DNA of 64,000 bases from an uncultured Ectothiorhodospiraceae bacterium (lineage in GTDB: Bacteria > Pseudomonadota > Gammaproteobacteria > JAABTG01): the NCBI GenBank assembly GCA_964439835.1, contig CAYTPQ010000001.1:84120-148119 (forward strand), read 5' to 3'. A program made the translations under genes and the position numbers. This document shows positions 31,687 to 52,516 of this stretch, piece after piece. Every line of letters starts with the position of its first letter. Positions within the stretch are counted from its first letter, which is position 1. The notes below the pieces were generated by a model. That model was not told the DNA's origin. It worked only from the letters and a program-made list of their open reading frames with translations, and did not search any database.

Positions 31687-31760
31687 TTGCTCTCATGCGG
31701 ATTGGCGGCTGTCGCGCCATTTCACCGTGACTAATGGAGTCTGCCCCCCCTTGAAAGCCA

Positions 31761-32127: not shown

Positions 32128-32156
32128 TTCGGCGGTCGTGAGAGGAGGGGACGCTC

Positions 32157-34029: not shown

Positions 34030-35193
34030 ATGAGAGCAAGAACAAAGGGCACCGCCGGCGCGCTCGTTGCGGCATTGTCACTGGCGCTGACGGTGGATGC
34101 GCAGGCGCAGAGAACGGGTACCCGCACCACCACTACGACGTCGCCGACGACGTCGATTAACCCGTACTCCGATCCCTGGCTCGCGACCATCTATGGCGAG
34201 ACCACGTACAGCTTCACGTATGTTGAAGCTCCGCCCAGCAGTGGCCTAATCAACCTACTCAGCTCCAGTTGGTCCGGGGTGGGTTCTCTGTTGCCGGTCC
34301 TCCTCAATGCCAAGCTTTCGGTCACGGGCTCAGGTCTCACAAGTGATTGGACAGAAATTCCAGGACCGAACGGAGAGCCTTGTGGAGGAGAGAATGGGAA
34401 CTGTCGGACCGAGCTAAACGTGCCCGTCGACTTCCACTTCAACTACACAAATGGTTACGGTGTCACCGGAGACCTATACGACCTCCTGACCGGCAACTCC
34501 ACTTCCGACACCAGCGGTTACGTCTTCGAGTGGCGAGACGACGGATTGCTGTTCAACACAGTAGATATCCCATTAACCCTCCAGATCCCCTTCATCGGCC
34601 CAACAACACTGCTCCCTGCATCCGAGGGAAGTGGTCAGATGGTGGAGCAGGTGGGAGCGGGAACCAGCCAACCGAATCGCGAGGTCCTTGGCTTCGTGGA
34701 GGACAGCGCTTTCGTGGGAGACTGCAAGATTGGTGATCCGAAATTGTACGCCTGCATCCTCGACCTCTATGCGACTCCGGGCGAGGACGGTCTTCTGCTT
34801 CGCCTGTTCTGCCCCGACTGGCCCGACGTGACAACGTGCTTCAGCGACAACAGCCCGACGTACGGCGGCGCTTCCCTGCTGTCCACTGCGAGTGTCGCCC
34901 CCGCCTCCACCAACGGAACGATCCTCCCGGGACTCGGGCTGGGCATCTTCCGCCTGAGCCCGGAGGACTGTCTCACGGAGCACCCAAACGACGCGTCCCT
35001 GTGCGAAGAGGCGACGTTGACCGAGAACGCCATCGCGCTCGGCGAGCAGTTCGGCAACCGGGGCGGCATCGTCGTGTTCAACGCGGCCACGGAAGCGCCC
35101 GAGCCCGCGAGCCTGGCGCTGCTGGGCGTCGGTCTGGCCGGGATGGGCTTGATGCGGCAGCGCGTGCGGCGTCGCCGGCCAGCGGCGCACTGA
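34030..35193 (+). CDS. Secreted PEP-CTERM sorting-domain protein (paralog 1).
   Basis: Signal peptide. A Thr-rich stretch (TGTRTTTTTSPTTSINPYSDPW). C-terminal PEPASLALLGVGLAGMGLMRQRVRRRR is a PEP motif, then a TM helix and an Arg cluster. GC is lower than in flanking genes. Confidence 0.75.
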   Translation: MRARTKGTAGALVAALSLALTVDAQAQRTGTRTTTTTSPTTSINPYSDPWLATIYGETTYSFTYVEAPPSSGLINLLSSSWSGVGSLLPVLLNAKLSVTGSGLTSDWTEIPGPNGEPCGGENGNCRTELNVPVDFHFNYTNGYGVTGDLYDLLTGNSTSDTSGYVFEWRDDGLLFNTVDIPLTLQIPFIGPTTLLPASEGSGQMVEQVGAGTSQPNREVLGFVEDSAFVGDCKIGDPKLYACILDLYATPGEDGLLLRLFCPDWPDVTTCFSDNSPTYGGASLLSTASVAPASTNGTILPGLGLGIFRLSPEDCLTEHPNDASLCEEATLTENAIALGEQFGNRGGIVVFNAATEAPEPASLALLGVGLAGMGLMRQRVRRRRPAAH

Positions 35194-35313
35194 GGCCCGA
35201 GAGCAGGCAGACTGCTCGGCCGGTCGCAAAGACCCCCGGCGAACAGAGATGCCGGGGCGCGCGCAAGTCTGCCGGGAAGCCGGTGGGTCGGTTTTGCGCC
35301 TCTCGACCCCCCC

Positions 35314-36507
35314 TTACGCCAGCAACTCCTCGCAGCGCGACACGATGGCCTCCAGCGCGGCGCCAGGCTCGTAGTCGGCGTGCCGGGCAGCGAATTGTTG
35401 GGCCGCCGCGCGGAAGGAGGCCTCCCCGGTCAGGCGATTCAGGGCCTCGCGGATGTCTGCCTGTCCCACCGGCTCGACCAAGACGAGGCCGGCGCCTAGC
35501 CGCTGAACGTTCAGGGCCGTGATCAGCTGCTCGGCGTGCATGGGGACGGACAGGATCGGAACGCCGGCTAACAGGGCTTGGGAGACGGTCCCCAACCCCG
35601 CGTAGCCGACGAAGAGGTCCACCTGCCCAAGAGCGGCACTCAGGTCGACGGGGTCCGGGGAGAGCGTGACGTTGCGCCCCGACCATCGCTTGCGAAACCT
35701 GGGCGTAACGTCTGGCACGAACACCAGCGCCCGCAGGTCCGCCTCCTGCAAGGCGGCGAGGAGGTTCTCCAGGCCCGGCGTCTCCTTCCGCAGGTACCCG
35801 AAAACCCTGGCGCCCCCACCCCGGGGCCACGCGGGCGGTATGCCCTTCAGCCCGCCAATCAGCGGGTCCCAGTAGCGCTGGCCGGTGCGGCCGGGGTAGT
35901 GGTCGAGCTCCGGAAACGTGCAGAGAAAATCCTCCGCCACGTCGAAGAGGTCGGCGAGCCGTCCGAGCCCGGCCAGACCGATCACCGACAACGTGCGGTT
36001 CACCGTGTCGAGCGCCAGACGCTCGCTGTAGGCCAGGCGGACAATCGGTACCGGCTCCCACGTCCGGAACGCAGGGATCGGCTCGGTCCGGGAGGGCGAG
36101 AAGAAGCCGTTGCCTTGCACCACGACCGGGATCGCCAGGCTCCGCGCGGCCAGCTGTGCCGTGGGGGCGGAGTTGGCGATGAGCAGGTCGGGCCGTTGCT
36201 GCTCGAACAGGCGTCTCCAGCCCTGCACGGGACCGAGCAACGCCTCGGGGCTGTGGTAACCGGTGCGGAGCAGGATCTCCGCGAAGCTCGCGGGGGATCC
36301 CAAGCCCGCGGCGCCCGCGACGCCGAGCGGGGCCTGCAGGACGGTGAAGGACTCGCCGCGAAGGACGTTACTCGCGCGGGCCACTTCCCGTAGGGCCATG
36401 ACGACCCGGTGGCCGCGCGCGTGCAGGTCCCGGGCGAGGGGCAACATCTCCCCCACGTGTCCCAGGTTGCCACCGAGCTCCCAAGCGAAGAGTACGGTCT
36501 TCGTCAC
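35314..36507 (-). CDS. GT1-family glycosyltransferase (UDP-glycosyltransferase/MGT-like).
   Basis: 397 aa. N-terminal FAWELGGNLGHVGEMLPLARDLHARGH. C-terminal donor-binding region VGYAGLGTVSQALLAGVPILSVPMHAEQ (GT-B signature). Confidence 0.8.
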   Translation of the reverse strand: MTKTVLFAWELGGNLGHVGEMLPLARDLHARGHRVVMALREVARASNVLRGESFTVLQAPLGVAGAAGLGSPASFAEILLRTGYHSPEALLGPVQGWRRLFEQQRPDLLIANSAPTAQLAARSLAIPVVVQGNGFFSPSRTEPIPAFRTWEPVPIVRLAYSERLALDTVNRTLSVIGLAGLGRLADLFDVAEDFLCTFPELDHYPGRTGQRYWDPLIGGLKGIPPAWPRGGGARVFGYLRKETPGLENLLAALQEADLRALVFVPDVTPRFRKRWSGRNVTLSPDPVDLSAALGQVDLFVGYAGLGTVSQALLAGVPILSVPMHAEQLITALNVQRLGAGLVLVEPVGQADIREALNRLTGEASFRAAAQQFAARHADYEPGAALEAIVSRCEELLA

Positions 36508-36907
36508 GGGAGGGGCGAGAAGCCGGCAGGCACGGCGCGACGGGAAGCCTCAGGCACTGGCCTGGCCTGGCTGGACTCGGGCCGACGGGGCGAGGCGAGG
36601 CGAGGCGGAAAGACACCAGAGCTTCTTGATCGGGGCCGGAACCGAGTGGTGTGCCGAGCATACATGGAGCGGCGCCCCGGGGGCCGGAGTCTCTGCCAAC
36701 CGGAGCGTGCCGTGCCGGGGGACGCATATATCGGAAAGCTTTACAGTTGATGCAGGTTTAGGGGCGCTCTATCCACTCAACCCGCTGAAGGAAAGAGTAT
36801 TTCCTGTGTCGGCGCGAACTTTGCTTTCGGGTGGCATGGCCCTGCGCTTCGCGGAGGCCGCACGGCTCGCACGCATGTTATTCAAGTCGACTGGAGGGCC
36901 ACCCCCC

Positions 36908-38044
36908 GTGAGCGCGCATATCGGCCGTTTCGCCATCAAGCCCCTCGCCCTCGCCGTCATCGCCGTCGTCGCCGCCGCTGCGACCAGCGATGCCATGGCG
37001 CAGCGCCGGGGCAGCACCACCACGACCACCTCCACCACGCCCACGACCCAGGTGAATCCGTACTCTGACCCCTGGTTCGGGATCGTTTGGGGCGAACTGG
37101 GCTGGGAGCTCAGTAAAGCTCTCGACGATTGGGGCAATCCTCAGACGTATGTTTTTGAGCAGTCGGACTTCGAAAAGGACTGCTTCAGTGAATCCGGTGG
37201 TTGCACCCAAAACTTACTCAACCTCACCCTGAGTGGCACGAGCCTGAGCAGTTACTGGTGGGAGACGCAGGACGATGCCGGCACGAGTCTGACGGAGGAG
37301 TTCGAACCAGACGAAGTAGCGGACTCCACTCCGCCGGGGAACGCGCCGCCGCCAGAGAATGCCCAGGGGTTCCCCGTGGACTTCAGGTACAACCTCTTCA
37401 ACGGTGCCGAGATCCCTCAGGTGGTCGACGGGCAGTACGTCTTCAACAGCGCGGCCTTCCTGGCGGGCGAGGACGTCCCGCTAACGGTTGTCTTCGGGGG
37501 CCTACCGGGTCCGAACAGTAGTCCTTTCAGCTGGAAGGTCACCGAAGACGGCAGCCCGACAAATATTGATGGGAGCGCCTTCGGCGTCCTGACGGAGAAG
37601 ACGACCGAGTTCCTCTCGTTCATCGAGACACCTGATTCCAACAATTCTCTTGATTGCCCGGCGGGCGGCGTCGCGGTCAACAGCACTGACCCCGACCCGA
37701 ACTGCATCCTCGACCTGTACGGTATCAAGACTAGCGTCGGGGGTCTTCCGCTTCTGACCGCCCCCATCAGCACCTACGCGGTCCTCAGGTTCTCGAGTCC
37801 GGGGGTGATCGAGGGCCTCGCCTTCGTGACGAACACCTTTAGCATCGATGGCGGAGAGGGCGGCGCCCCTCTGCCGGATAACTGCGTCCCTTCCATGGGT
37901 CCGGCCAACTGCAATGGCGCAAGCAGCAGAATCGTTGGAGAAAACTTCCGTCTCGTCCCCGAGCCCGGCACGGTCGCATTGCTCGGCCTCGGCCTGGCGG
38001 GTCTCGGCGTCGCGCGGCGTCGGCGCACGGTCGCGGATCGCTGA
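36908..38044 (+). CDS. Secreted PEP-CTERM sorting-domain protein (paralog 2).
   Basis: Signal peptide. Shares STTTTTSTTPTTQVNPYSDPW and ILDLY motifs with paralog 1. C-terminal VPEPGTVALLGLGLAGLGVARRRR is PEP-CTERM. The start is ambiguous: GTG 36908, or ATG 36875 / 36836. Confidence 0.7.
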   Translation: MSAHIGRFAIKPLALAVIAVVAAAATSDAMAQRRGSTTTTTSTTPTTQVNPYSDPWFGIVWGELGWELSKALDDWGNPQTYVFEQSDFEKDCFSESGGCTQNLLNLTLSGTSLSSYWWETQDDAGTSLTEEFEPDEVADSTPPGNAPPPENAQGFPVDFRYNLFNGAEIPQVVDGQYVFNSAAFLAGEDVPLTVVFGGLPGPNSSPFSWKVTEDGSPTNIDGSAFGVLTEKTTEFLSFIETPDSNNSLDCPAGGVAVNSTDPDPNCILDLYGIKTSVGGLPLLTAPISTYAVLRFSSPGVIEGLAFVTNTFSIDGGEGGAPLPDNCVPSMGPANCNGASSRIVGENFRLVPEPGTVALLGLGLAGLGVARRRRTVADR

Positions 38045-38297: not shown

Positions 38298-41200
38298 GTG
38301 GGGGGAGAAAGCGTGCGGCGAGAGAGAGGCCGACCCGTTCGGGGCGGGCGAACCAGTACGGGCTGGCGGCGTTCGACCCTCGCCGGTCTGGTGTTGACCC
38401 TGGGTTCGGGGTTTCCGGGCGCAGGCCAGGCGCAGGCGCCAATCGTCCGTGACGGCACCGTCGGCCCTGCCGGGCCAGTCAACGCCGCCGGGGGCGTCTA
38501 CACCATACCCGCCAGCGACGGCACCTCGGCCGGCGCGAACCTCTTCCACAGCTTTTCCAACTTCAATGTCCCCGCCGCAACGACCGTGCAGTTCACGGAC
38601 ACGGGCGCGCCGAGCGCGGTCGCGAACGTGATCAGCCGCGTAACCGGCAGCAACCAGACCCGCATCGAGGGCACCCTCTCCAACATCCCCGGCGCCAACT
38701 TCTATCTCCTGAACCCGCGCGGGGTCTTCATCGGTGAGAACGCCTTCATCGACGTCTCGGGCTCGTTCCACGTCTCGAGCGGCGACTACATCCGCTTCGG
38801 CGACGGCGGGCGCTTCTACGCTGACCCGGCACGGGTGAGCACCTTCTCGACCGCGGAGCCGGCGGCGTTCGGCTTCCTGGGCGGAAATCCATCGGGTGGG
38901 ACGCGCGGCACGATCGAGGTGTCGGGCAGCCCCTTCGACGCCGGCTTCGGCTTCGGCATCCACGTCATCCCCGACGGCCAGGCCTGGTCCTTCGTCGGCG
39001 GCGACGTGCGCATCGGATGGGGCGACACCCAGCTCGCCTACCTGTTCAGCTGGGCAGGGCGCGTGAACCTGGTGAGCGTCGCCTCCGCGGGCGAGGTGCA
39101 GCTGACGCCGACCGGCGTCACGCTGGACGGGGTGAGCGCGCTGGGTCGCGTCGACATCGTCGAGGGCAGCTCGTTCGACGTGCGCGACATCTACATCCGG
39201 GCGGGGACGCTGAACATCGACGACTCGTACCTGGCGTCCGGGGTCTTCACCGACACCGAGGGAGTCATCGACGTGGCCGTCACGGGCGACGCCACCATCG
39301 GCGGAGCCGGCGGATTCTGGGAGGCGGGCTTCTTCTCGGCGGCCGGCGCGGAGTTCGGCGGATTCGGCCCCGGTGCGCCGATCCGGCTCGCCGTGAGCGG
39401 AACGCTTGCCGTCGACGGCATCGGCAGCGTGCAGACGCTGAACCGCAGCTTCGGCACCGAGAACGCGGGCGCCGTCGACATCGTCGCCGGCACGGTGGAG
39501 ATCCGGAACGGCGGCTTCGTCGTCAGCCGCAACGACGCAGGCTCGGGTACCGGCGGGGCGCTGCGGATCGAGTCCCAAACCCTGCGACTCTCGGGGGACG
39601 GACCGCGCTCCGCCTCCGCCCCCGACTTCTTCGCCTTCGACGCCACGCCTGGCATCGCCGCCTACACCACCAACGGAGCGGACGCCGGTAGCGTAAGCGT
39701 CACCTCCAGCTTGCTGGAAGTGCTGGGCGGCGCCGAGGTGAGCGCCCGCACGTTCGGCGCCGGCCGGGGCGGTGACCTGACCATCGACGTGACCGAGGTT
39801 CGAGTGTCCCGCGGCGGCGCGGCCGCCGGCGGCATCGCGGCCGAATCGATCGGCACCCAGCCCGGGGGAGGGGTCATCCCGACGGGGGACGCTGGCAATC
39901 TGGTCATCCGCGCCGCACGGCTCTCGCTGCTCGACGACAACGCCCAGGTCAGCGCCAGCACCAACTCGACCGGGCGCGCCGGCGCGGTCACCATCACCGC
40001 GACAGAGTCGGTCACGACTGCGGGCCGCAACAGCGGAGTCTTCAGCAGTACCCGGGGCAAAGCCGCCGAGATCGGCGCGCAGCCGGGCGACGCGGGTAAC
40101 GTCGCCATCACCACGCCACTGCTCCGGATGGACGGGCCCGGGCGCATCGAGGCGGCCACCAGCGGTGACGGCAGTGCGGGGTCCGTGCTCCTGGACGTGG
40201 GCCGCCTGGAGCTCCTGGGTGGCGCCCAGGTGCGGTCGTTCAGCGGCCAGGTGCTGCCGGGCGCGTCGGCGCCGGACGTCGGCCTCGGCAACGCCGGCAC
40301 CGTCAGCGTCAGGGCGAGCGAGTCCGCTTCCCTCTCCGGCGTCAGCGAGACCGGGGCGCCGACCTCGCTCTCCAGTCAGACCCGCGGCCCGGGCGCCGGC
40401 GGGCAGGTCGAGGTCTACACCCCGCTCCTGACGCTGGCCGACGGGGCGCTCATCGGCGCCGACACCGGCGGCGACGGCGACGCGGGGGCGGTCTACGTCG
40501 AGGTCGACCGCGCAACCCTGTCGGGCGGCGCGCGGATCAGCAGCGACAGCGGTATCACGGTGGGCGGTCTCGACCTGCTGGGGACGGGCGAGGGCGGCGG
40601 CGTCACCCTGGTCGCGCGGGAGAGCGCCAGTCTGAGCGGTAGCGGTACCCGTGTCTCGACCCGGACCCAGGGAGCCGGGTCGGGCGGAGTGGTAACCCTT
40701 CAGGCCGGCGCCATTGACCTCGCGGGCGGCGCGGTAATCGCGTCCGACACCTCCGGCACGGGAGACGCGGGCGCGGTCTTGCTCTACGGAGACACGACTC
40801 GCCTGAGCGGCAGCGGGACGCGCGTTTCGACCGAGACGCGCGGCACCGGCGCCGGCGGAGGCGTGCTGATCGCGGGACCGAGTCTGCAGTTGCAGGGCGG
40901 GGCGGTCGTCAGCGCCGAGACCTTCGGCACCGGCAACGCCGGCGCGGTGGTCTTGGAGGGCGGCAACGTTGCGCTCGCCGGCAGCGGGACGCGCGTCTCC
41001 ACCGGCACCAGCGGCCCCGGACGCGGCGGCGACGTCGAGATCTCCGGCGAGCAGCTGTCGATTACGAGCGGCGCGTCGGTATCCGCCAGCAGCACCGGCA
41101 CCGGCCTCGCGGGCAACATCACCATCCGCCTCGGGGACAGCCTGACCATGCAGGGCGGGAGCGTGACGACGCAGGCCGTCACCTCGGACGGCGGCAACAT

Positions 41201-41738
41201 CACCATCACAGCGCCGCGGCTCATCCACCTGCGGGACAGCCAGATCACCACGTCGGTCGAAAGCGGGACGGGCGGGGGCGGCAACATCTTCATCGACCCG
41301 CAGTTCGTGGTGCTCCAGAACAGCCAGATCATCGCCAACGCCTTCGGCGGGCCGGGCGGCAACATCCGGATCGTCGCCGGGCAGCTGATCGCCGACCCCT
41401 CGACCCTCATCTCGGCCTCGTCGGCCCTCGGCATCGACGGCACCGTGAACATCGACGCCCCCGACACCAACGTCAGCTCCGCCCTGGTGGCTCTGCCCGA
41501 GTCCTACCTGGACGCCTCGAGCCTGCTGCAGCCGAGCTGCGGGGCGGCGCGCGCGGGCTTGAGCAGCCTGGTCGAGGTGGGCCGCGGCGGCCTGCCGCCG
41601 GACCCGGACGGGTATCTCTGGAGCGTGGACGTGGACACGAAGACCGTCGCCCCGGCCAGCCGCCGGACCGCCGCCCGCGCCGCGGCGAACCCCTTCGAGG
41701 GCGCCCTCGCCTTCGCCGGCCAGGGGTGCCGGCGGTGA
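38298..41738 (+). CDS. TpsA exoprotein: N-terminal TPS/haemagglutination-activity domain, long right-handed beta-helix repeat region, distinct C-terminal domain.
   Basis: TPS-domain motifs NLFHSFSNFNV and NPRGVFIGENAFIDVSG. Degenerate GAG...SG(S/T)... repeats throughout. A conserved C-terminal block of about 150 aa (NIFIDPQFVVLQNSQIIANAFGGPGGNIRI...). Confidence 0.85.
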   Translation: MGGESVRRERGRPVRGGRTSTGWRRSTLAGLVLTLGSGFPGAGQAQAPIVRDGTVGPAGPVNAAGGVYTIPASDGTSAGANLFHSFSNFNVPAATTVQFTDTGAPSAVANVISRVTGSNQTRIEGTLSNIPGANFYLLNPRGVFIGENAFIDVSGSFHVSSGDYIRFGDGGRFYADPARVSTFSTAEPAAFGFLGGNPSGGTRGTIEVSGSPFDAGFGFGIHVIPDGQAWSFVGGDVRIGWGDTQLAYLFSWAGRVNLVSVASAGEVQLTPTGVTLDGVSALGRVDIVEGSSFDVRDIYIRAGTLNIDDSYLASGVFTDTEGVIDVAVTGDATIGGAGGFWEAGFFSAAGAEFGGFGPGAPIRLAVSGTLAVDGIGSVQTLNRSFGTENAGAVDIVAGTVEIRNGGFVVSRNDAGSGTGGALRIESQTLRLSGDGPRSASAPDFFAFDATPGIAAYTTNGADAGSVSVTSSLLEVLGGAEVSARTFGAGRGGDLTIDVTEVRVSRGGAAAGGIAAESIGTQPGGGVIPTGDAGNLVIRAARLSLLDDNAQVSASTNSTGRAGAVTITATESVTTAGRNSGVFSSTRGKAAEIGAQPGDAGNVAITTPLLRMDGPGRIEAATSGDGSAGSVLLDVGRLELLGGAQVRSFSGQVLPGASAPDVGLGNAGTVSVRASESASLSGVSETGAPTSLSSQTRGPGAGGQVEVYTPLLTLADGALIGADTGGDGDAGAVYVEVDRATLSGGARISSDSGITVGGLDLLGTGEGGGVTLVARESASLSGSGTRVSTRTQGAGSGGVVTLQAGAIDLAGGAVIASDTSGTGDAGAVLLYGDTTRLSGSGTRVSTETRGTGAGGGVLIAGPSLQLQGGAVVSAETFGTGNAGAVVLEGGNVALAGSGTRVSTGTSGPGRGGDVEISGEQLSITSGASVSASSTGTGLAGNITIRLGDSLTMQGGSVTTQAVTSDGGNITITAPRLIHLRDSQITTSVESGTGGGGNIFIDPQFVVLQNSQIIANAFGGPGGNIRIVAGQLIADPSTLISASSALGIDGTVNIDAPDTNVSSALVALPESYLDASSLLQPSCGAARAGLSSLVEVGRGGLPPDPDGYLWSVDVDTKTVAPASRRTAARAAANPFEGALAFAGQGCRR

Positions 41739-43510
41739 GGCCCCCCGGTCCCGGTACGCCGGCCGGGTTGAGCACGCCTGAATTCAGGGCAACCCGGCTG
41801 GCCGCGGCCCTGGCGCTGACGCTGGCATCCACCAGCACGCCGGCCCAGCAGTTCGGCGTGCCCGACGTGCCCATCGGCGCCCCGGGCGCCCGGCAGCTGG
41901 AGGACTTCGGCGAGCGGGCCCTGCCCCGCCCGGGCTTCGCCCCCGGCAAGGCGCCAAGCGTCGGCGTGCCGCGACCGGCCGCCCCGGCAGCAGGCGAGCG
42001 GGCCCCGGGTGGGCCGCGGATCCTGCTCCGCGAGGTCCGGGTCACCGGCAACACGGTGCTGCCGGAGGAAGACCTGCGGGCCGTGACCGCCCCCTACGTC
42101 GGCCGCCAAGTCAGTAGCGAGGACCTGGAGACCCTGCGCCTGGCGCTGACCCGGCTCTACGTCGACCGCGGCTACATCAACTCCGGCGCGGTGATCCCCG
42201 ACCAGAAGGTCACCGAAGGCGTGGTCGAGGTCCGGATCGTCGAGGGGCGGCTGACGGACATCCAGGTCACCGGCAACCAGCGGCTCGACAGCGACTACGT
42301 GAGCGACCGCCTGGCGCTCGGCGCCGGCCCGCCGCTCAACGTCAAGGGCGTGCAGGAGCAGCTGCAGATCCTGCTCCAGGGGCCGTTCATCCAGCGCATC
42401 AACGCCGAGCTGGAGCCGGGCGACCGGCCGGGCGAGGCGCGCCTGCGGGCGCAGGTCGAGGAGGCCCCTCCGGTGCGGCTCTCGGTCGGCACCGACACCG
42501 ACCTCTCGCCGGCCCTCGGCGAGGCGCGTGCGGTGGTGCGCGGCCAGGCCTTCAGCCCGCTCGGGCGCGGCGACGTGCTGACCGGCGAGGTCGCGGTCGC
42601 GAGCGGCCTGCAAGACTACATCCTCAACTACGCCGTCCCCCTGAACGCCCGGGACCTGACCCTGGACGTCTTCGGCGAGTGGACCTCCTCCAAGGTGGTG
42701 CGCGGCGAGTTGCAGGACCTGGACATCCGGGCCGAGAGCTCGACCCTCGCCTTCCGCCTGAGCCAGCCGGTCTACCGCACCAGCCAGGAGCAGCTCACGC
42801 TGGCCGCCGGGCTAGATCTGCGGCAGAGCACCACCTGGCTGCTGGACGAGCGCTTCGCCTTCTCGCCGGGGGTGGAGTCCGACGGCGAGAGCCACGTCAC
42901 CGTGCTGCGCTTCGTCGCCGACTGGGTGACCCGCAGCCGCAGCCAGGTGCTGGCGGCACGCTCGACGCTGAGCTGGGGCATCGACGCCTTCGGCGCCACG
43001 GACAACTCCGGCGGCCTGCCGGACGGGCAGTTCGTGGCCTGGCTCGGCCAGTTCCAGTGGGCGCGCCGGCTGGGCGAGACCGACAGCCAGCTGGTGTTCC
43101 GCTTCGACGGCCAGCTGACCTCCCACCCCCTGCTGCCGCTGGAGCAGTTCGCGGTCGGCGGGCTCACCAGCGTGCGCGGCTACCGGACCAACGAGATCGT
43201 CCGCGACCGGGGCTACATCGCCTCGCTGGAGCTGCGGGTACCGGTGCTGCGGCGCGAGGACGGCAACCCGATGCTCCAGATCGTGCCCTTCGTCGACGCC
43301 GGCGGCGCCTGGTACAAGGGCTACAGCACGCCCGACCCGAACCGCATCACCAGCGCCGGCCTCGGCCTGCGCTGGGACCCGGCCCCGCCGGTGCACGCCG
43401 AGGTCTACTACGGCCAGAACTTCCAGGGCAAGGGCATCCCCGACGACCCGAGCGGCCTGCAGAACACCGGCTGGAGCTTCTTGCTCACCGCCGACCTGCT
43501 GACTTGGTAG
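41726..43510 (+). CDS. ShlB/FhaC/HecB-family TpsB outer-membrane transporter (POTRA domains plus 16-strand barrel).
   Basis: The GTG start overlaps the tpsA stop. POTRA region ILLREVRVTGNTVLPEEDLRAVTAPYVGRQVSSEDLETLRLALTRLY. The C-terminal beta-barrel ends ...LTADLLTW (aromatic terminus). Confidence 0.85.
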   Translation: MPAVRPPGPGTPAGLSTPEFRATRLAAALALTLASTSTPAQQFGVPDVPIGAPGARQLEDFGERALPRPGFAPGKAPSVGVPRPAAPAAGERAPGGPRILLREVRVTGNTVLPEEDLRAVTAPYVGRQVSSEDLETLRLALTRLYVDRGYINSGAVIPDQKVTEGVVEVRIVEGRLTDIQVTGNQRLDSDYVSDRLALGAGPPLNVKGVQEQLQILLQGPFIQRINAELEPGDRPGEARLRAQVEEAPPVRLSVGTDTDLSPALGEARAVVRGQAFSPLGRGDVLTGEVAVASGLQDYILNYAVPLNARDLTLDVFGEWTSSKVVRGELQDLDIRAESSTLAFRLSQPVYRTSQEQLTLAAGLDLRQSTTWLLDERFAFSPGVESDGESHVTVLRFVADWVTRSRSQVLAARSTLSWGIDAFGATDNSGGLPDGQFVAWLGQFQWARRLGETDSQLVFRFDGQLTSHPLLPLEQFAVGGLTSVRGYRTNEIVRDRGYIASLELRVPVLRREDGNPMLQIVPFVDAGGAWYKGYSTPDPNRITSAGLGLRWDPAPPVHAEVYYGQNFQGKGIPDDPSGLQNTGWSFLLTADLLTW

Positions 43511-43658
43511 CCGGCTACGCTGGCCGTCGCGCCGTGTGCGGCTGAAGGCGCACCTTCGTAATCCGATAGCACCGGCTTGTGGGGCCGGATTCAGCCGGCC
43601 ATGGGTCCGCTGCACGTGTCAGGCGGGCGGAAGCCGGCCCTACCACGGCCCCCCCCCA

Positions 43659-44072
43659 TCATCGCCGCCTGCGCTTGAGCTGGAACGTGCTCATCGCGGG
43701 CACTAGGTCGGCGTAGGGCACGGCGCCGGGGTTGCGGTATCGGGCCACTGCCGCCTCGACCAGGGAGCCGACGTCCGCGACGGCGCCGGAGCCTGTCGCT
43801 CCGGGGTCGACCAGCTGCTGCAGCCCCAGCAGCCCACCCATCTGCACCTTCATCCCCACCCCGTGGGGCAGCTCGGTCAGGTCGTCCGTGTAGCCGAGAG
43901 CCGGCAAGCCAACCTCCTTGAGCCGGGCGAGCACCTCGACGCAGAGGCCATGGGTCTCGGGCGCGTGGCAGGCGATGTCGGGGCCCTCGCGCCGGGTAAC
44001 GACCTCGGCGTGCCGGCAGCCGAAGTCCCCGGGCAGAAGCGCCTGGCGAAATGGGCAACGCAGGTCTTCCAT
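43659..44072 (-). CDS. Small hypothetical Cys-containing protein, co-oriented 13 nt downstream of the CHAT gene.
   Basis: 137 aa with four Cys (CPFRQALLPGDFGC, IACHAPETHGLC). Weak RBS. No domain recognised. Likely co-transcribed with CHAT. Confidence 0.4.
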   Translation of the reverse strand: MEDLRCPFRQALLPGDFGCRHAEVVTRREGPDIACHAPETHGLCVEVLARLKEVGLPALGYTDDLTELPHGVGMKVQMGGLLGLQQLVDPGATGSGAVADVGSLVEAAVARYRNPGAVPYADLVPAMSTFQLKRRRR

Positions 44073-44084
44073 GGTTTTGCCCCG

Positions 44085-46367
44085 CTACAGCCAGTTGCCG
44101 ATCAGCAGGAACGGTCCCCAGTAGGCCGGGTGGGCGTAGCGGCGGTCGGCCATCAGGGCGAGCTGGGCCTGGCGCAGGGCCTGGCCCTTGCCGACCGAGC
44201 CTTCCTGCAGGCGGGCGTAGAAGTCCGAGATCAGCAGCGAAGAGGCCTGGTCGCTCACGTACCAGAGGGTCGCCACCGCGCTGCGGGCCCCCGCCTTCAC
44301 CGCGACGCCCGCTAGCCCCAGCGCCGCCCGGTCGTCACCGGCGGCGGTGCGGCAGGCGCTCAGGGTCAACAGCTCCACCGGCTGGTCCCGGTAGGCGGTG
44401 CCGCCGAGCTGGGCTTCCAGATCATTCAGCGTGATCCGCCCGTCGTAGGTCAGCAGGAAGGTGTCCTCCACCTCGCGCCCGAACTCCCCGTGGGAGGCCA
44501 CGTGGACGATCGAGTAGGGGCGGCGCTCCAGCTCGGAGGCGAAGGGCTCCTCGCGGAAGGCGTTGTTCTTCAACACGGTGGTGGGAAAGCGCGCGCGCAG
44601 GGCCTCGATCTCGGCGCCGACCGCGGGCAGGGCCGGGAAGCCCTGCACGGCGTCGGTGAGCCCTCCGACGAGGATCCGGGCCTCCCGGGCGGCGAGCGGC
44701 CGGGGGTCGGTCAGCGTCAGGCCGGGGGAGGTGGCCACCACATACCGGCTCACCAGGAACTCCTGGCCGTCGTGCAGGACCGTCAGCGGCACGGTGCGCA
44801 GCACGCCGTCCGGCACGTACACGAGGGTGTCTATCCCTGCCGCCGCCAGGTCTGCCTGGACCGGCCGTACCAGCCAGTCGTAGACCTGCTGGGCCGGCCG
44901 CAGGAACTCGCGGGTGGTACGCTTCTCGAGGCCGCGGCGCAGGGCGGACACCGCCGCCTCCAGGTCACGGGCCGCGACCGGGCTCTGGTACAGCCGCAGG
45001 CCGTCCGGGAACCCCACCAGGACCGCTAGCTGGTCCGGCAGGACGATGGGGTACAGGACCGCGGTCTTCGCCGCGACCGACTCGACCCCGCTCGTCTTGG
45101 AGCGCAGGGCCGCCACGCAGTCATCCTGGAAGTAGTCCTCCAGCTCCGCGTTCTTCAGGCGCTCCACCGTGTCCCGCGCCTCGCGCAGGCCGGCCTGCGC
45201 GGCGGCCGGGTCGCGCGCCGCGGCAGCCTGCACCAGCAGCAGATCGGTGAGCTCCAGGTAGACCGGCCCCGCCTGCTCCCGGAACGAGGTCGGACGGGCG
45301 TGCCGGCCCACGGTGAGATCCGGGCGGATGCCGTCGAGTGTCGCAGTGGCGAGCCGGTAGGCGGTCAGCGCCCCCTCGGGGTCGCCCAACTGGCGCAGCA
45401 GGCGCCCGGTCTGCCACTGCCAGCGGTACAGGCTCTCGGGGGCGGCGGCCTCCTGCGCGGCCCGGGCCGCCTCACGGCTCAAGGCCAGCGCCCGCTCGGG
45501 GTCCCCGTTGGCCTGGTACAGCGCGCCCTGGTAACCCAGGGCGTAGGAGAGGGTCCGATCGTCGCCGATTGCCTGCGCGGTGCGGGCGGCGTCCTCGAGC
45601 GCGGCCAGGGCCTGCCGGCGCGGCGCCTCGCCGGCCCGACCCGCGGGGGCGCCGGCCGCGTGCAGCCGGCCGATGCTCACCAGGGTGGCCGCCCGGGCGT
45701 GGGAGTCCGGAAGCGAACGGGCCAGCACGCCCGCCTCGGCCAGCGCGGCGGCAGATTCCCGGGCCTGCCCGGCGTCGCGCAGGGCGCGCGCCAGGTTGGC
45801 GGCGGCGCGGGCGGCCAGGGCCGCGTCGCCCGCCGCGCGGGCCGCGCTCAGGCTATCGCGGTACAGGGAGGCGGCCTTGCGCGCGTCGCCTTCACCCGCG
45901 GCGATGCCCGCCAGGTCGTTCGCAGCCCGGGCCGCCTGGGCGGGGTCCCCGCCCTCCCGAGCGAGCCGGAGCGCCTGGTCGAGGGCCTCCCGGCCCTGTC
46001 GCAGCTCGCCGCCGAGGACCAGGGCGTTGCCGAGGCCGGCGGTGGCGCGCGCCACCAGCGCCGCGTCCCCGGCCTCGCGCGCCAGGGCGAGCGCACGGGA
46101 CAGCCGCTCGGCCGCCAGGGAGGGGCGGCCGAGGGCGAGGTACGCGTTGCCCGCCCCGAGCTGCGCGCGCGCCTGGCCGGCGACGTCCCCGCCCTGCTCC
46201 GCCTGCCGCAGCGCCTGCTCCCAGCCCGCCAGGGCGTCTTCGAAGCGACCGGCCTGGAAGGAGGCGTCGGGCGCGTCCGCAGGAGACCCGCCCGAGTCCG
46301 CCGGCGCGAGGACCGACAGGGCCAGTAGGGCGAGCACGACGGCCGGCGTGGCGAAGGGTATCCGCAT
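44085..46367 (-). CDS. TPR-repeat plus CHAT-domain (caspase-like) protease with an N-terminal signal peptide.
   Basis: Signal peptide. About 8 TPR-like repeats (...LGNALVLGG...). The C-terminal CHAT domain has a His/Cys dyad (HVASHGEF, LLTLSACRTAAG). Confidence 0.85.
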   Translation of the reverse strand: MRIPFATPAVVLALLALSVLAPADSGGSPADAPDASFQAGRFEDALAGWEQALRQAEQGGDVAGQARAQLGAGNAYLALGRPSLAAERLSRALALAREAGDAALVARATAGLGNALVLGGELRQGREALDQALRLAREGGDPAQAARAANDLAGIAAGEGDARKAASLYRDSLSAARAAGDAALAARAAANLARALRDAGQARESAAALAEAGVLARSLPDSHARAATLVSIGRLHAAGAPAGRAGEAPRRQALAALEDAARTAQAIGDDRTLSYALGYQGALYQANGDPERALALSREAARAAQEAAAPESLYRWQWQTGRLLRQLGDPEGALTAYRLATATLDGIRPDLTVGRHARPTSFREQAGPVYLELTDLLLVQAAAARDPAAAQAGLREARDTVERLKNAELEDYFQDDCVAALRSKTSGVESVAAKTAVLYPIVLPDQLAVLVGFPDGLRLYQSPVAARDLEAAVSALRRGLEKRTTREFLRPAQQVYDWLVRPVQADLAAAGIDTLVYVPDGVLRTVPLTVLHDGQEFLVSRYVVATSPGLTLTDPRPLAAREARILVGGLTDAVQGFPALPAVGAEIEALRARFPTTVLKNNAFREEPFASELERRPYSIVHVASHGEFGREVEDTFLLTYDGRITLNDLEAQLGGTAYRDQPVELLTLSACRTAAGDDRAALGLAGVAVKAGARSAVATLWYVSDQASSLLISDFYARLQEGSVGKGQALRQAQLALMADRRYAHPAYWGPFLLIGNWL

Positions 46368-46811: not shown

Positions 46812-49800
46812 GTGGATGCCAAGCCGATGAACGAGAGCGACGTTCCCGCCAGCCCCCGACCCCATCGCGGCGAGGCCGTGATCGGCCGGGCGTTCCGCTG
46901 GTCCCTGGCGATCTTCGCCGCGGCCGGCGTCGTCGTGGCCGCCGGCGTCTATCTCGCCCGCCGCGCGCCCCCTCCCCCGCCGTCCGTAGAGCAGGCCCCC
47001 GTGGCCGCCCCGCGGGAGGCGGCGGCGCCGGTCCGCGAGCCGCCGGCCCTGCCCTTCACCGACGTCACCCGCGAGGCCGGGATCGACTTCCGGCACGTGA
47101 GCGGCGCCCGCGGGGAGCGCCTGCTGCCCGAGACCATGGGCAGCGGCGCGGCCTTCTTCGACTACGACGGCGACGGCGACCCGGACCTCCTGCTGGTCAA
47201 CTCGGACGACTGGCCGGTCGAAGCGGCCGCATCGCCGGCCGGGGACGCTACCGGTGGCCCGGACCTGGCCGGAACCCCGCAACGTCTAGGGAACTCCGCC
47301 GAAGGCGATGTTGCCGCAGGAACCCCCGGAACGGCCGCGGACCGACCGGCGCCGGGGCCCACCGGGGTGTCCCAGGGCCCGGTGTCCCCGGGCGCCGTCG
47401 GCGGCAATGCACGCCACCCCACCCTCGCCCTCTACCGCAACGACACCGTTACGGGCGATAAGGGCGCGCCGGCGGTGAGCTTCACCGACGTCACCCGGGA
47501 GGCGGGGCTCGCCGTGAGCCTCTACGGCATGGGCGTCGCGACCGGCGACTACGACGGCGACGGGCACGTGGACGTCTTCGTCACCGCCGTTGGACCGAAC
47601 CGGCTGTTCCGCAACCAGGGCGACGGCACCTTCCGCGAGGTCACGGAGCAGGCGGGCGTCACCGGCGCGGCCGACGCCTGGAGCACGGGCGCCGCCTTCT
47701 TCGACTACGACGGCGACGGCGACCTGGATCTGTTCGTCGGCAACTACGTCCGCTGGTCGCGGGAGATCGACCTACAGGTCGACTTTCGTCTGACCGGGAT
47801 CGGCCGGGCCTACGGTCCCCCCTCCGCCTTCGAGGGGGCGCACCCCTACCTCTACCGCAACGAGGGCAACGGGACCTTCACCGACGTCTCCGCGGCAGCA
47901 GGGGTCCAGGTCGCCAACCCGGCGACTGGGCGACCCATGGCCAAGGCCCTCGGCGTCGCGCCGGTCGACCTGGACGGCGACGGTCGCATGGACCTCCTGG
48001 TCGCCAATGACACGGTCCAGAACTTCCTGCTCCGCAACCGCGGCGACGGCACCTTCGAGGAGATCGGCACCGCCGCGGGCGTCGCCTTCGACCGCGACGG
48101 CGCCGCCACCGGCGCGATGGGCATCGACACCGCGCGCTACCGCAACGACGAGGCCCTGGCGGTGGCGATCGGCAACTTCGCCAACGAGATGACCTCCTTC
48201 TACGTCACCCAGGGCGTGCCGGACCTGCTGGCCGACGAGGCGATCCAGGCGGGGATCGGCCCCGCCTCCCGGCAGGCCCTGACCTTCGGGCTCTTCTTCT
48301 TCGACGCGGACCTGGACGGGCAGATCGACCTGCTGCAGGCGAACGGCCACCTGGAGGCGGAGATCAATCAGGTGCAGCCGAGCCAGCACTACGCCCAGCC
48401 GGCCCAGCTGTTCTGGAACTGCGGCCCCGACTGCCCGGCGGCCTACGTACCGGTCCCCGCGCAGCAGATCGGAGACCTGGCGCGGCCGATGGTCGGGCGC
48501 GGGGCCACCTACGCGGACGTGGACGGCGACGGGGACCTGGACGTGCTGCTGACCGAGAACGGCGGCCTGCCCCGCCTGCTGCGCAACGACCAGGCGCTCG
48601 GCCACCACTGGCTGCGGGTGCGGCTCGTCGGCCGGGCCCCCAACCCGGACGCCATCGGGGCCCGGGTCGAGCTGACCGCGGGGGGCGTGACCCAGTACCG
48701 GCAGGTCGTGCCCGCGCGGAGCTACCTGTCCCAGGTGGAGCTGCCCGTCACCTTCGGCCTGGGGCAGTCGGCCGCGGTGGAGCGGCTGCGGGTGACCTGG
48801 CCCGACGGCAGCGCGGAGGACGTGCCGGTAGAGGGCATGGACCGGCTGGTCACGGTCCGGCAGACGGGGGCCGGGCCAGCGGCAACCGCCCTCCCCACCG
48901 GATCAGCCCCCGCGACGCCGACGGGGGGCAACCCCCCCACGGCGCTCGCCGCCGAGGCCCCGCCCGCGGCAGGATCTGTGGCGACACCCGGCCCGCCGGC
49001 CGCCGCCCCCGCCGCCACGCCACCGCCCACCGCCGAGGGCGGCGGGTTCGTCGAGATCGCCGAGGCGTCCGGCCTCGACTTCGTCCAGTTCAACGGCATG
49101 TCGGGGGAGTGGTACCTGGTCGAGAACCTGGGTGGGGGTGTGGCGCTCCTCGACTATGACGGGGACGGGGACCTGGACGTGTTCCTGGTCCAGGGCGAGA
49201 TGCTGGGGCCGAAGCCCCCGTCGGCCGCCCTCTTCCCGCCCCCGCCCGGCAAGCCGCCCGGCGCCCGGCTCTACCGCAATGACCTGACCGTGGCCCCGGA
49301 CGGGACACGCTCGCTGCGCTTCACCGACGTGACCGAGCAGAGCGGGATCCGCGATACCGGTTACGGCATGGGCGTCGCCGCAGCCGACTACGACAACGAC
49401 GGCGACGTCGACCTGTACCTGGCCAACCTCGGCCCCAACCAGCTCTGGCGCAACAACGGCGACGGCACCTTCACGAACGTGACCCAGCCGGCGGGCGTCG
49501 GCGAGCCGCGGCTCTCGGTCAGCGCCGCCTTCCTCGACTACGACCGCGACGGCCGGCTCGACCTCTTCGTCGGGAACTACGTGGACTTCAGCCCCGACAA
49601 CAACCGGCCCTGTTACGCGCCCTGGAGCGCCCGGGACTACTGCTCGCCGAAGGTCTACCGGGCCCTGCCCGACACCCTCTACCGCAACCGCGGCGACGGC
49701 ACCTTCGAGGACGTCAGCGTGAAGACCCGCGTCGCCCAGGAGGCGGGGACCGCGCTCGGCGTGGTGGCCGCGGACTTCAACGGCGACGGCTGGGCCGACG

Positions 49801-50708
49801 TCTACGTGGCCAACGACGGCATGGCCAACCACCTGTGGATGAACCAGAAGGACGGCACCTTCGTCAACGACGCGCTCCTCGCGGGCGCGGCCGTCAACCG
49901 GGAAGGCATGGCCGAGGCCAGCATGGGCGTCGACGCCGGCGACGTGGACGGCGACGGCGACGAGGACCTGTTCATGACCCACCTGGCGGGGGAGACCAAC
50001 ACCCTCTACCTGAACAACGGCGAGGGCTGGTTCGAGGACCGCTCGGTGCAGAGCGGCCTGGCGGGGCCGAGCAAGGCCTACACCTCGTTCGGAACGGCCT
50101 TCTTCGACTACGACAACGACGGCGACCTGGATCTGTTCGTCGCCAGCGGGGCGGTCAACATCATCCAGACCCAGGCCGAGGCCGGCGACCCCTACCCCCT
50201 GCGTCAGCCGAAGCAGCTGTACGAGAACGAGGGCGAGGGGCGCTTCCGGGACGTCTCCGCCGAGGCCGGCGCCGCCCTGCAGGTACCCGAGGTGAGCCGG
50301 GGGGTGGCCTTCGGCGACCTGGACAACGACGGCGACACCGACCTGGTGGTGGCCAACAACAACGGGCCGGTACGCCTGCTGGAGAACCGGCTCGGCACCC
50401 GGAACCACTGGCTCGGCCTGCGGCTCATCGGCCGCGAGGGCCGCGACGCCGTCGGCGCCCGGGTCGCTGTCGAGCGTGCGGGCCAACCGACCCTCTGGCG
50501 CCGCGTCCGCGCCGACGGCAGCTACGCCGCCGCCAACGACCCGCGCGTGCTGGTGGGCCTGGGCCAGGGGGGCGAGGTCGGGCAGGTCCGGGTCCACTGG
50601 CCGGACGGCACGGTCGAGTCATTCGCGGGTCTGCTCGCCGACCGCTACCACACGGTCAGGCAAGGGTCCGGGCGCCCAGCGGAGCAGGAACAACCGCAGA
50701 GACACTGA
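46812..50708 (+). CDS. CRTAC1-like protein with two tandem FG-GAP/VCBS beta-propeller plus ASPIC/UnbV modules.
   Basis: 1298 aa. Repeated FxDVTxEAG...GMGVAxGDYDGDG.DLFV and LYRNxGDGTF motifs. Two UnbV/ASPIC-like blocks: RVELTAGGVTQYRQV...VTWPDGS and RVAVERAGQPTLWRRV...VHWPDGT. Confidence 0.8.
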   Translation: MDAKPMNESDVPASPRPHRGEAVIGRAFRWSLAIFAAAGVVVAAGVYLARRAPPPPPSVEQAPVAAPREAAAPVREPPALPFTDVTREAGIDFRHVSGARGERLLPETMGSGAAFFDYDGDGDPDLLLVNSDDWPVEAAASPAGDATGGPDLAGTPQRLGNSAEGDVAAGTPGTAADRPAPGPTGVSQGPVSPGAVGGNARHPTLALYRNDTVTGDKGAPAVSFTDVTREAGLAVSLYGMGVATGDYDGDGHVDVFVTAVGPNRLFRNQGDGTFREVTEQAGVTGAADAWSTGAAFFDYDGDGDLDLFVGNYVRWSREIDLQVDFRLTGIGRAYGPPSAFEGAHPYLYRNEGNGTFTDVSAAAGVQVANPATGRPMAKALGVAPVDLDGDGRMDLLVANDTVQNFLLRNRGDGTFEEIGTAAGVAFDRDGAATGAMGIDTARYRNDEALAVAIGNFANEMTSFYVTQGVPDLLADEAIQAGIGPASRQALTFGLFFFDADLDGQIDLLQANGHLEAEINQVQPSQHYAQPAQLFWNCGPDCPAAYVPVPAQQIGDLARPMVGRGATYADVDGDGDLDVLLTENGGLPRLLRNDQALGHHWLRVRLVGRAPNPDAIGARVELTAGGVTQYRQVVPARSYLSQVELPVTFGLGQSAAVERLRVTWPDGSAEDVPVEGMDRLVTVRQTGAGPAATALPTGSAPATPTGGNPPTALAAEAPPAAGSVATPGPPAAAPAATPPPTAEGGGFVEIAEASGLDFVQFNGMSGEWYLVENLGGGVALLDYDGDGDLDVFLVQGEMLGPKPPSAALFPPPPGKPPGARLYRNDLTVAPDGTRSLRFTDVTEQSGIRDTGYGMGVAAADYDNDGDVDLYLANLGPNQLWRNNGDGTFTNVTQPAGVGEPRLSVSAAFLDYDRDGRLDLFVGNYVDFSPDNNRPCYAPWSARDYCSPKVYRALPDTLYRNRGDGTFEDVSVKTRVAQEAGTALGVVAADFNGDGWADVYVANDGMANHLWMNQKDGTFVNDALLAGAAVNREGMAEASMGVDAGDVDGDGDEDLFMTHLAGETNTLYLNNGEGWFEDRSVQSGLAGPSKAYTSFGTAFFDYDNDGDLDLFVASGAVNIIQTQAEAGDPYPLRQPKQLYENEGEGRFRDVSAEAGAALQVPEVSRGVAFGDLDNDGDTDLVVANNNGPVRLLENRLGTRNHWLGLRLIGREGRDAVGARVAVERAGQPTLWRRVRADGSYAAANDPRVLVGLGQGGEVGQVRVHWPDGTVESFAGLLADRYHTVRQGSGRPAEQEQPQRH

Positions 50709-50716
50709 GGCGCAGA

Positions 50717-52444: not shown

Positions 52445-52516
52445 GACGTTCGGGGTGCTTGGGCGGATGCCCGGGCGCCCCCCAGCCGGCAACACCCACC
52501 CACCAGGACCCCGTCG

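Follow-up and report, generated by a model that had tools for sequence, protein, structure and literature searches.

A type Vb secretion pair, a TPR-CHAT protease, a CHASE2 cyclase and a DUF928 protein as a candidate trans-envelope signalling module

The passengers of two-partner secretion (TPS, type Vb), known as TpsA proteins, are usually adhesins or exoproteins, and in Bordetella FhaB/FhaC, with its prodomain, as well as in CdiA, with its secretion arrest, the TpsA C-terminus is held in the periplasm and processed by a protease. Here, we describe a TPS pair located in a stretch of 64,000 nucleotides (nt) from an uncultured Ectothiorhodospiraceae bacterium (GenBank assembly GCA_964439835.1, contig CAYTPQ010000001.1, positions 84,120 to 148,119; hereafter the window), together with genes for a TPR-CHAT protease, a CHASE2 receptor cyclase and a DUF928 protein. 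Related or similar proteins have been described in other settings. The Sinorhizobium meliloti CHASE2 adenylate cyclases CyaD1, CyaD2 and CyaK depend on the outer-membrane beta-barrel NsrA for the perception of a protein signal from outside, and act through cyclic AMP on a Crp-like regulator (PMC7529298, PMC13001267). In Magnetospirillum gryphiswaldense, the product of mtxA (MtxA, MGR_0208, PDB 4z29) has a signal peptide, a CHASE2 adenylate cyclase gene follows mtxA, and a role in periplasmic signalling was proposed by the authors (PMC4439547). The periplasmic TPR-CHAT of the anti-sigma factor DdvA, which has a His-Cys pair, was proposed to be a signal-activated site-1 protease that starts trans-membrane signalling (PMC11506125).

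The window has approximately 70% G+C, and its genes were chosen by third-position GC. The five genes in question are listed below, with protein lengths in amino acids (aa).
38298-41738, + strand: TpsA, predicted exported beta-helical two-partner-secretion passenger, 1146 aa (Pfam TPS 3.9e-28; NCBIfam TIGR01901 1.7e-16)
41726-43510, + strand: TpsB, Omp85-type outer-membrane transporter, 594 aa (Pfam ShlB 2.3e-28, POTRA_2 1.6e-22, Omp85 4.8e-14)
44085-46367, - strand: predicted exported TPR-CHAT caspase-like cysteine protease, 760 aa (Pfam TPR_12 + CHAT 3.2e-55)
27364-29325, - strand: CHASE2 receptor cyclase, 653 aa (Pfam CHASE2 4.9e-61, aa 26-343; Guanylate_cyc 1.6e-24, aa 443-636)
24068-24790, - strand: predicted exported DUF928 protein, 240 aa (Pfam DUF928, PF06051, 8.2e-38; 130.4 bits against a cut-off of 26)

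An earlier note on this DNA had placed TpsA, TpsB, the adjacent TPR-CHAT protein and the DUF928 protein here, and Pfam confirmed all four. The note had grouped the TPS, CHAT and DUF928 proteins as a triad; these are indeed co-conserved, but the unit was drawn too small, as the CHASE2 cyclase had been missed. We consider it highly probable that TpsA, TpsB, the TPR-CHAT protein, the CHASE2 cyclase and the DUF928 protein form one conserved unit. Loci were collected by scanning a four-sequence DUF928 alignment against one genome per species, which yielded 79 loci. The loci were translated in six frames, with profiles made from the window proteins and their first matches, and co-occurrence was counted in the 30 DUF928 loci that were flanked by 9 kb or more on each side. 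The TPS domain and the TpsA C-terminal domain were each present in 27 of these 30 loci, CHAT and TpsB each in 25, and CHASE2 and the cyclase domain each in 24. All five genes were found in 19 of the 30, and no locus lacked all of them (0/30). Co-occurrence with DUF928 is far above chance. The gene neighbourhoods of five CHAT homologues were also examined, and TpsA and TpsB were encoded nearby in all five. The DUF928 loci belonged to Beta- and Gammaproteobacteria, Desulfobacterales, Rokubacteria/Methylomirabilota, Scalindua, Verrucomicrobia, Nitrospirae, Binatia, Entotheonella and others. The co-conservation of CHAT and TPS genes anticipated in the earlier note thus holds in related and distant genomes, and its statement that CHAT, DUF928 and haemagglutinin-type proteins co-occur in cyanobacteria and proteobacteria was borne out.

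In most loci the CHASE2-cyclase gene was the immediate neighbour of DUF928. A co-directional string TpsA>TpsB>CHAT>CHASE2-cyclase>DUF928 was observed in Desulfobacterales, and a methylomirabilotal locus (L003) contained TpsB, TpsA, CHAT, CHASE2-cyclase and DUF928. In L001 and L088, about 11 kb held all of the genes: CHAT came first, TpsB and TpsA followed on the other strand, and next were a PEP-CTERM gene, CHASE2-cyclase and DUF928; in L089 the contig stopped past TpsA. When the open reading frames (ORFs) of the loci were clustered all against all, no further gene was widely conserved enough to count as a sixth member. The exceptions were local, namely the PEP-CTERM gene in a betaproteobacterial clade and an oxidoreductase of the pyridine-nucleotide type with a cyclic mononucleotide (cNMP)-binding domain, found in eight loci; the remaining clusters were mostly shadow ORFs in other frames. 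The pairwise distances of six domains correlated with r values of 0.69-0.92 across 26 loci, which fits inheritance as a unit, and the genes are both co-conserved and co-divergent across phyla. NCBIfam gave only generic names to the module proteins, and no paper linking these genes was found in the open-access literature, though a description elsewhere is possible. Each part is of a known kind; their assembly, in which a type Vb pair is combined with a periplasmic CHAT protein, an MtxA-like DUF928 protein and a CHASE2 receptor, appears to be undescribed.

The TPS domain was the sole Pfam match of TpsA (aa 61-305, nt 38478-39212). The protein has a signal-peptide-like N-terminus, as judged from its translation and hydropathy, an NPRG motif at nt 38712-38723 (within 'LLNPRGVFIG' at aa 139) and a body of Gly/Thr/Ser-rich repeats; at the DNA level no tandem repeats were found in tpsA. 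Close to the end lies the C-terminal signature CGAARAGLSSLVEVGRGGLP (nt 41538-41597), beyond which 46 aa remain as a tail, and a Cys is found 3 residues from the end; the two tail cysteines are C1081 and C1144. The signature, in the form C-x(10-14)-SS[FL]x[VLI]xGRxG[LIV]P, was present in 51 of 56 module TpsA proteins and also in a Nostoc sp. PCC 7120 homologue, in keeping with the distinctive conserved C-terminal domain reported before. In 35 module TpsA proteins with a tail of at least 39 aa, one of the last 8 residues was a Cys. A motif scan found no VENN motif in TpsA, and the sole match in a search of PDB sequences was the TPS domain of HxuA (E 4e-4). In TpsB, the POTRA_2 domain (nt 42026-42247) precedes the ShlB barrel (nt 42431-43372), and the loop-6 VRGY motif is found at nt 43172-43183 (aa 483). 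The 3' end of tpsA and the 5' start of tpsB share 13 nt. With the hallmarks of both passenger and transporter present in the sequences, the pair is assigned to two-partner secretion (type Vb), export itself being predicted.

The CHAT protein consists of a signal peptide (nt 46299-46367), approximately 19 TPR-like helical hairpins and the CHAT domain (nt 44094-44900). Its predicted catalytic pair is His626 (nt 44490-44492, in 'HVASHG') and Cys672 (nt 44352-44354, in 'LSACRTA'). The dyad had been described as intact in the earlier note; its residues align, with H622, H626 and C672 invariant across a 60-sequence alignment, and the His/Cys pair was at least 95% conserved among 54 homologues encoded in the loci. 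A hydropathy scan revealed a lone hydrophobic segment, at the N-terminus, and such an N-terminal segment was present in 41 of 47 module CHAT proteins. The CHAT and DUF928 proteins are both predicted to be exported because each has a single N-terminal hydrophobic segment. The AlphaFold2 model of the CHAT protein (predicted local distance difference test score, pLDDT, 88.8) matched the TPR-CHAT protein Csx29 of Craspase (E 1.8e-14), separase (approximately 1e-11 to 1e-12) and DdvA (1.3e-11) in Foldseek, and the protein is accordingly modelled as a caspase-like TPR-CHAT fold, for which proteolysis is predicted. In the PDB sequence search with this protein, TPR proteins were the only matches. A search of a protein collection returned a large family of full-length homologues with top identities of about 60-61%. 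Scanning for promoters and terminators near the CHAT gene gave nothing, a result that is uninformative at 75% GC.

The signal peptide of the DUF928 protein ends in ALA|A and is the only hydrophobic segment. The AlphaFold2 model (pLDDT 83.5) shows an immunoglobulin-like (Ig-like) beta-sandwich at aa ~60-165 and a TPR-like helical domain at aa ~170-239. A fold like that of MtxA, Ig-like plus TPR, is therefore predicted from the model, and MtxA shares with DUF928 the signal peptide and the order of an Ig-like sandwich followed by TPR-like helices. A DUF928 profile of 62 sequences failed to retrieve 4z29 at E values up to 10, and gave no meaningful match to PDB sequences; this profile is narrow (47-90% identity to the query), and remote homology is possible. 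The protein also contains a conserved, flexible Arg/Gly-rich motif, YKPPMRGAPASRVGGGTRG (nt 24617-24673), of the form YKPPxRGAPxxRVGGGTRG. Its best match in the protein collection had 90% identity. In the open-access literature searched, a single paper mentioned DUF928, without tying it to these genes.

According to hydropathy, the CHASE2 cyclase has a first transmembrane (TM) segment at aa 15-33, a periplasmic CHASE2 domain (nt 28297-29250), three TM segments at aa 331-403 and, in the cytoplasm, a class III cyclase domain (nt 27418-27999). The metal-binding Asp residues as well as the Asn and Arg of the cyclase domain are intact. The substrate-specifying Lys (KxxGD) is replaced by Asp, and a Lys is found three residues past the GD ('DDYYGDAIKANFG'). 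This Asp-for-Lys pattern ('DDYYGDAIK' in the window) was common to 33 of 58 module cyclases; others had Lys (10) or Gln (10) at that position, with different neighbouring residues. Because the substrate-specifying Lys is Asp, the nucleotide product of the window cyclase is uncertain.

Two genes in the vicinity of DUF928 encode cNMP-binding fusion proteins that could read such a product.
21089-23932, - strand: MMPL/RND-type membrane protein with a C-terminal cNMP-binding domain (Pfam MMPL 1e-31, cNMP_binding 5.5e-20)
25404-27239, + strand: Glutaminase-STAS-cNMP-binding fusion (Pfam Glutaminase 1.7e-117, STAS 1.9e-05, cNMP_binding 2e-22)

The MMPL-cNMP gene is directly downstream of DUF928 on the same strand, and the same adjacency was seen in L086, whose DUF928 protein has 73% identity. 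The MMPL-cNMP protein is probably a cNMP effector of the module in this lineage. The glutaminase fusion gene lies between the CHASE2 cyclase and DUF928 on the opposite strand; no glutaminase gene was found between CHASE2 and DUF928 in the relatives examined, and the protein is probably a cNMP effector outside the conserved core. A Crp-type regulator and a cNMP-binding rhodanese protein are encoded further downstream of DUF928, so that the region 18850-27239 holds four different cNMP-binding proteins in 9 kb (rhodanese fusion, Crp-type regulator, MMPL fusion and glutaminase-STAS fusion). L086 also contained a cNMP-binding SpoIIE phosphatase, an anti-sigma kinase and a STAS partner. In eight loci (L003 at 2655-4268, L013, L016, L019, L026, L066, L068 and L069), a fusion of a pyridine-nucleotide-disulphide oxidoreductase with a cNMP-binding domain adjoins the module. 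Overall, cNMP-binding genes flanked 11 of 60 cyclase-containing loci, as well as the module in the window and in L086. The earlier note had regarded the TPS and CHAT genes as embedded next to a cNMP island. The location was correct; mere neighbourhood was not, since the CHASE2-cyclase belongs to the core (24 of 30 loci) and stands beside DUF928 even in cyanobacteria.

Variant loci are informative on the part played by the cytoplasmic output. In L002 (16916-18235; same genome as L076) and L065 (9113-10615), a fusion of a zf-HC2 anti-sigma domain, a TM segment and DUF928 is encoded beside a sigma factor of the extracytoplasmic function (ECF) type. These rare loci are without CHASE2 and keep TpsA, TpsB and CHAT, DUF928 being the periplasmic domain of the anti-sigma factor; in L002, from a deltaproteobacterial bin, the order is CHAT, TpsA, DUF928, ECF sigma factor, TpsB. 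With an anti-sigma-DUF928 protein and an ECF sigma factor in place of the cyclase, these variants speak for signal transduction and against a mere adhesin or toxin system. In L042 and L029, CHASE2 occurs without a cytoplasmic output domain. Two Nostoc plasmids have CHASE2 and DUF928 side by side, and on plasmid pCC7120alpha of Nostoc sp. PCC 7120 (L083, 8870-11215) a CHAT domain with intact His/Cys is fused to CHASE2, and the DUF928 gene comes after it. A TPS-domain protein with the same C-terminal signature is encoded approximately 3 kb upstream of this CHAT-CHASE2 gene. Two Nitrospiraceae loci (L070 and L075) show a partial duplication, TpsA-TpsB-CHAT-DUF928-DUF928-TpsA, with a TonB-dependent receptor downstream.

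The reading that we prefer, with a probability of roughly 0.45, is that the module works outside-in and relays a cell-surface event into a cNMP signal via proteolysis. TpsB would export the beta-helical TpsA to the cell surface, as is established for these families, and the Cys-bracketed C-terminal tail of TpsA would, by analogy with FhaB and CdiA, remain at or in the periplasm. A surface event might then activate the periplasmic CHAT protease or grant it access to its substrate, and the change would pass through DUF928, as an MtxA-like Ig-plus-TPR periplasmic adaptor and CHASE2 partner, to the CHASE2 domain. The cytoplasmic class III cyclase of the CHASE2 protein would make a cyclic nucleotide, to be read by the nearby cNMP-binding proteins, i.e., the MMPL transporter, the glutaminase, the Crp-type regulator and the rhodanese protein. 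The sequences show the gene set, the identities of the domains, the export signals and topology, the intact catalytic residues, and the co-conservation and co-divergence across phyla; in this scheme we infer the outside-in direction, the protease substrate and the periplasmic retention of the TpsA tail. Envelope parts that stay constant while the cytoplasmic output is swapped (cyclase, anti-sigma/ECF pair, or nothing) are typical of signal-transduction modules, and this combination argues for inward information flow. The scheme is in line with mtxA, which likewise has a CHASE2 cyclase gene beside it, and has precedents in the S. meliloti CHASE2 cyclases with NsrA and in the periplasmic TPR-CHAT of DdvA. 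To our knowledge, no CHASE2 ligand has been identified. A wider proposal, which we put forward tentatively and would not favour at even odds, is that CHASE2 receptors may receive trans-envelope protein signals and not small molecules, with DUF928 and MtxA proteins as periplasmic co-receptors and the type Vb surface protein as an antenna read out by a caspase-like protease.

Several observations weigh against the inward relay. TpsA-TpsB-CHAT-DUF928 is retained in Nitrospiraceae loci that lack CHASE2 in the surrounding 10 kb, so these four genes of the envelope may have an independent function; L060 and L061, conversely, contain CHASE2 and DUF928 alone. The CHAT domain of Nostoc PCC 7120 precedes the first TM segment of the CHASE2 protein and is apparently cytoplasmic. 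The Arg/Gly motif of DUF928 had been considered as a CHAT cleavage site, and this candidate is weakened by the same protein: the motif is kept in Nostoc though the CHAT domain of the locus sits on the cytoplasmic side, so it need not be cut by CHAT. The terminal Cys is missing from the short-tail forms of TpsA, and in the window CHASE2 and DUF928 are not co-transcribed any more. Shared phylogeny alone could yield the correlated divergence of the six domains. Deletion of mtxA gave no phenotype under standard conditions (PMC4439547), and our search of the open-access literature returned no experiment on any member of the module. Finally, the direction of information flow is not revealed by sequence.

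The main alternative, though a rather unlikely one, is that the module matures and releases an adhesin or exoprotein under regulatory feedback, in the manner of LapA/LapG/LapD, with attachment and not sensing as its main job. TpsA would be a surface adhesin anchored through its C-terminal tail, which CHAT would cut for its release or maturation, DUF928 and CHASE2 would control or sequester the protease or report on the state of the envelope, and cNMP would regulate expression. Such a release step would suit TpsA proteins, which are typically adhesins or exoproteins, and it fits the conserved Cys-bracketed C-terminal tail and a predicted exported CHAT protein with its catalytic pair intact. The Nitrospiraceae variants without CHASE2, the CHASE2 proteins without an output domain in L042 and L029 and the PEP-CTERM surface proteins beside tpsA in this lineage also speak for it. 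The cyclase, however, produces a signal, whereas the degenerate EAL domain of LapD receives one, and the replacement of the cyclase by anti-sigma-DUF928 and an ECF sigma factor implies flow from periplasm to cytoplasm. Moreover, Pfam found no LapG-type or LapD-type domains in the window.

The model of the earlier note, in which a TPS-exported adhesin or toxin is processed by the secreted CHAT protease, is improbable as a whole when taken with DUF928 as an accessory and the cNMP genes as an unrelated island. Its domains and the co-conservation of CHAT, TPS and DUF928 were confirmed, and the processing of an exported adhesin by CHAT is possible as one step. The 'unrelated island' part is largely refuted, as CHASE2-cyclase is as conserved as CHAT (24 versus 25 of 30 loci) and sits directly beside DUF928 in most loci as well as in cyanobacteria. 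Nothing supported the toxin reading: TpsA has no VENN motif, its C-terminus is conserved and not polymorphic, and no cytoplasmic immunity-like gene was found, while PADLOC matched generic cyclase and TPR models only.

A role in contact-dependent inhibition or anti-phage defence, with CHAT and a Pycsar-like cyclase as immune effectors, is very improbable: CHAT proteases and class III-like cyclases do occur in defence systems, the cyclase domain matches the PADLOC PycC models (4.2e-24) and the CHAT fold matches Craspase Csx29, yet the PycC matches span the generic cyclase fold only, CHAT and DUF928 bear export signals, the genes conserved in the loci include none for CRISPR, CBASS or effectors, the C-terminal part of TpsA is not polymorphic, and the module stands among housekeeping genes in diverse genomes. 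A known PADLOC defence system was set aside, the matches being the generic PycC cyclase-fold hits and a single TPR hit. CdiA/CdiB/CdiI does not apply, given the lack of VENN, a C-terminus conserved across phyla and no conserved small cytoplasmic gene after tpsA. Signalling of the FecA/FecR/FecI type was discarded, as no TonB-dependent transducer, FecR-type anti-sigma factor or ECF sigma factor is present in the module region of the window, and an ECF sigma factor together with anti-sigma-DUF928 is confined to the variant loci L002/L076 and L065.

The nearest relatives have the compact layout CHAT> <TpsB <TpsA <PEP-CTERM, then CHASE2-cyclase> DUF928> (arrowheads give gene direction). In the window the relative order and orientations are as in these closest relatives, but three extra stretches separate the parts: a gene for a 137-aa protein between tpsB and the CHAT gene, approximately 7.5 kb of lower-GC DNA between CHASE2 and the PEP-CTERM gene upstream of tpsA, and the glutaminase gene between CHASE2 and DUF928. 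The lower-GC stretch spans ~29500-36870; the GC fraction is 0.65-0.68 across 30-38 kb, compared with 0.70-0.75 in the flanks. It is rich in toxin-antitoxin genes, with ParE/Phd, HTH_3, DUF433 and PIN genes at 29.5-32.8 kb, and also holds genes for a glycosyltransferase and a PEP-CTERM protein and a 265-aa ORF that matches no family. Neither an integrase nor terminal repeats were found at the extra stretches in the window, which from the comparison with the relatives are presumed insertions. As the extra stretches are absent from the compact relatives, the 14 kb gap between DUF928 and tpsA looks secondary. Three further genes of this region are given here.
43659-44072, - strand: 137-aa protein without a match in Pfam or NCBIfam, encoded between tpsB and the CHAT gene
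36875-38044 (start estimated), + strand: PEP-CTERM-anchored surface protein, immediately upstream of tpsA (Pfam PEP-CTERM 3.3e-06)
33997-35193, + strand: second PEP-CTERM protein, paralogue of the 36875-38044 protein (26% identity, E 3.5e-10)

The 137-aa gene, which the earlier note did not mention, lies 12 nt past the CHAT stop codon, and its product has no signal peptide. It belongs to an uncharacterised family with 338 representative clusters at E <=0.001 and four conserved Cys residues. As a sixth component of the module this ORF was rejected, with no homologue in 82 related loci. In both PEP-CTERM proteins the signal peptide is followed by a Thr-rich stretch. Seven betaproteobacterial-type loci (L001, L004, L006, L007, L011, L021 and L088) have a PEP-CTERM gene between tpsA and CHASE2; orthology of the window protein to the betaproteobacterial one was rejected, as the sorting signal alone matches, and the two are positional analogues. 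Downstream of the CHAT gene (46812-55891, + strand), two FG-GAP/ASPIC-UnbV repeat proteins of 1298 aa and 1148 aa are encoded with a 570-aa TPR protein between them, the 1148-aa protein, second of the pair, having N-terminal TPRs. The region 56901-64000 (- strand) holds a V/A-type ATPase operon with A, B, E and I subunits, and PolA and HisF are encoded at the opposite end of the window.

The module links CHASE2, DUF928 and a free periplasmic CHAT protein to a secretion system with a well-understood export mechanism, which makes them testable together in one operon; no study of free periplasmic CHAT proteases was found in the literature searched. If the wider proposal on CHASE2 receptors is true, the module would represent a new class of bacterial cell-surface signalling that extends across many phyla and has interchangeable outputs (cNMP synthesis or ECF sigma release). 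The module occurs widely in groups of environmental importance, including Gallionellaceae, Sulfuricella, Desulfobacterales, Scalindua, Nitrospirae, Methylomirabilota and cyanobacteria, so that, if it served to sense surfaces or contact, it would matter for the formation of biofilms, flocs and consortia. Type V secretion would also join the short list of bacterial routes by which information, and not proteins alone, crosses the outer membrane.

Compared with known systems, the TPS pair resembles FhaB/FhaC and CdiA in having a TPS passenger and an Omp85-type TpsB in overlapping genes, a conserved non-beta-helix C-terminal segment that could stay periplasmic, and a protease gene nearby. It differs in that the protease is a caspase-like TPR-CHAT protein and not of the subtilisin, CtpA or DegP type, and in that TpsA is distant from solved TpsA proteins and has no toxin domain or VENN motif. 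Linkage to a CHASE2 cyclase and DUF928 is not known from any described TPS system. As in S. meliloti, an inner-membrane CHASE2 cyclase is combined with an outer-membrane partner, which in S. meliloti is NsrA; the neighbour of the one Sinorhizobium CHASE2 cyclase inspected was a FecR-domain protein, not DUF928, TPS or CHAT. MtxA was reported as specific to magnetotactic bacteria, and TPS or CHAT genes were not mentioned with it (PMC4439547). In DdvA, CHAT is fused to an anti-sigma factor and was proposed to be self-cutting, whereas the window CHAT is a free protein with an export signal, and in those module variants that have an ECF sigma factor the anti-sigma factor is joined to DUF928 and not to CHAT. 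The resemblance to LapA/LapG/LapD is one of logic: a protein at the surface is combined with a cysteine protease in the periplasm and with an inner-membrane receptor that has a periplasmic domain and is linked to a nucleotide second messenger. The Lap system draws on unrelated families (type I secretion, C93 protease and HAMP-GGDEF-EAL), and LapD receives cyclic di-GMP from inside, whereas the receptor described here is predicted to synthesise a cyclic mononucleotide.

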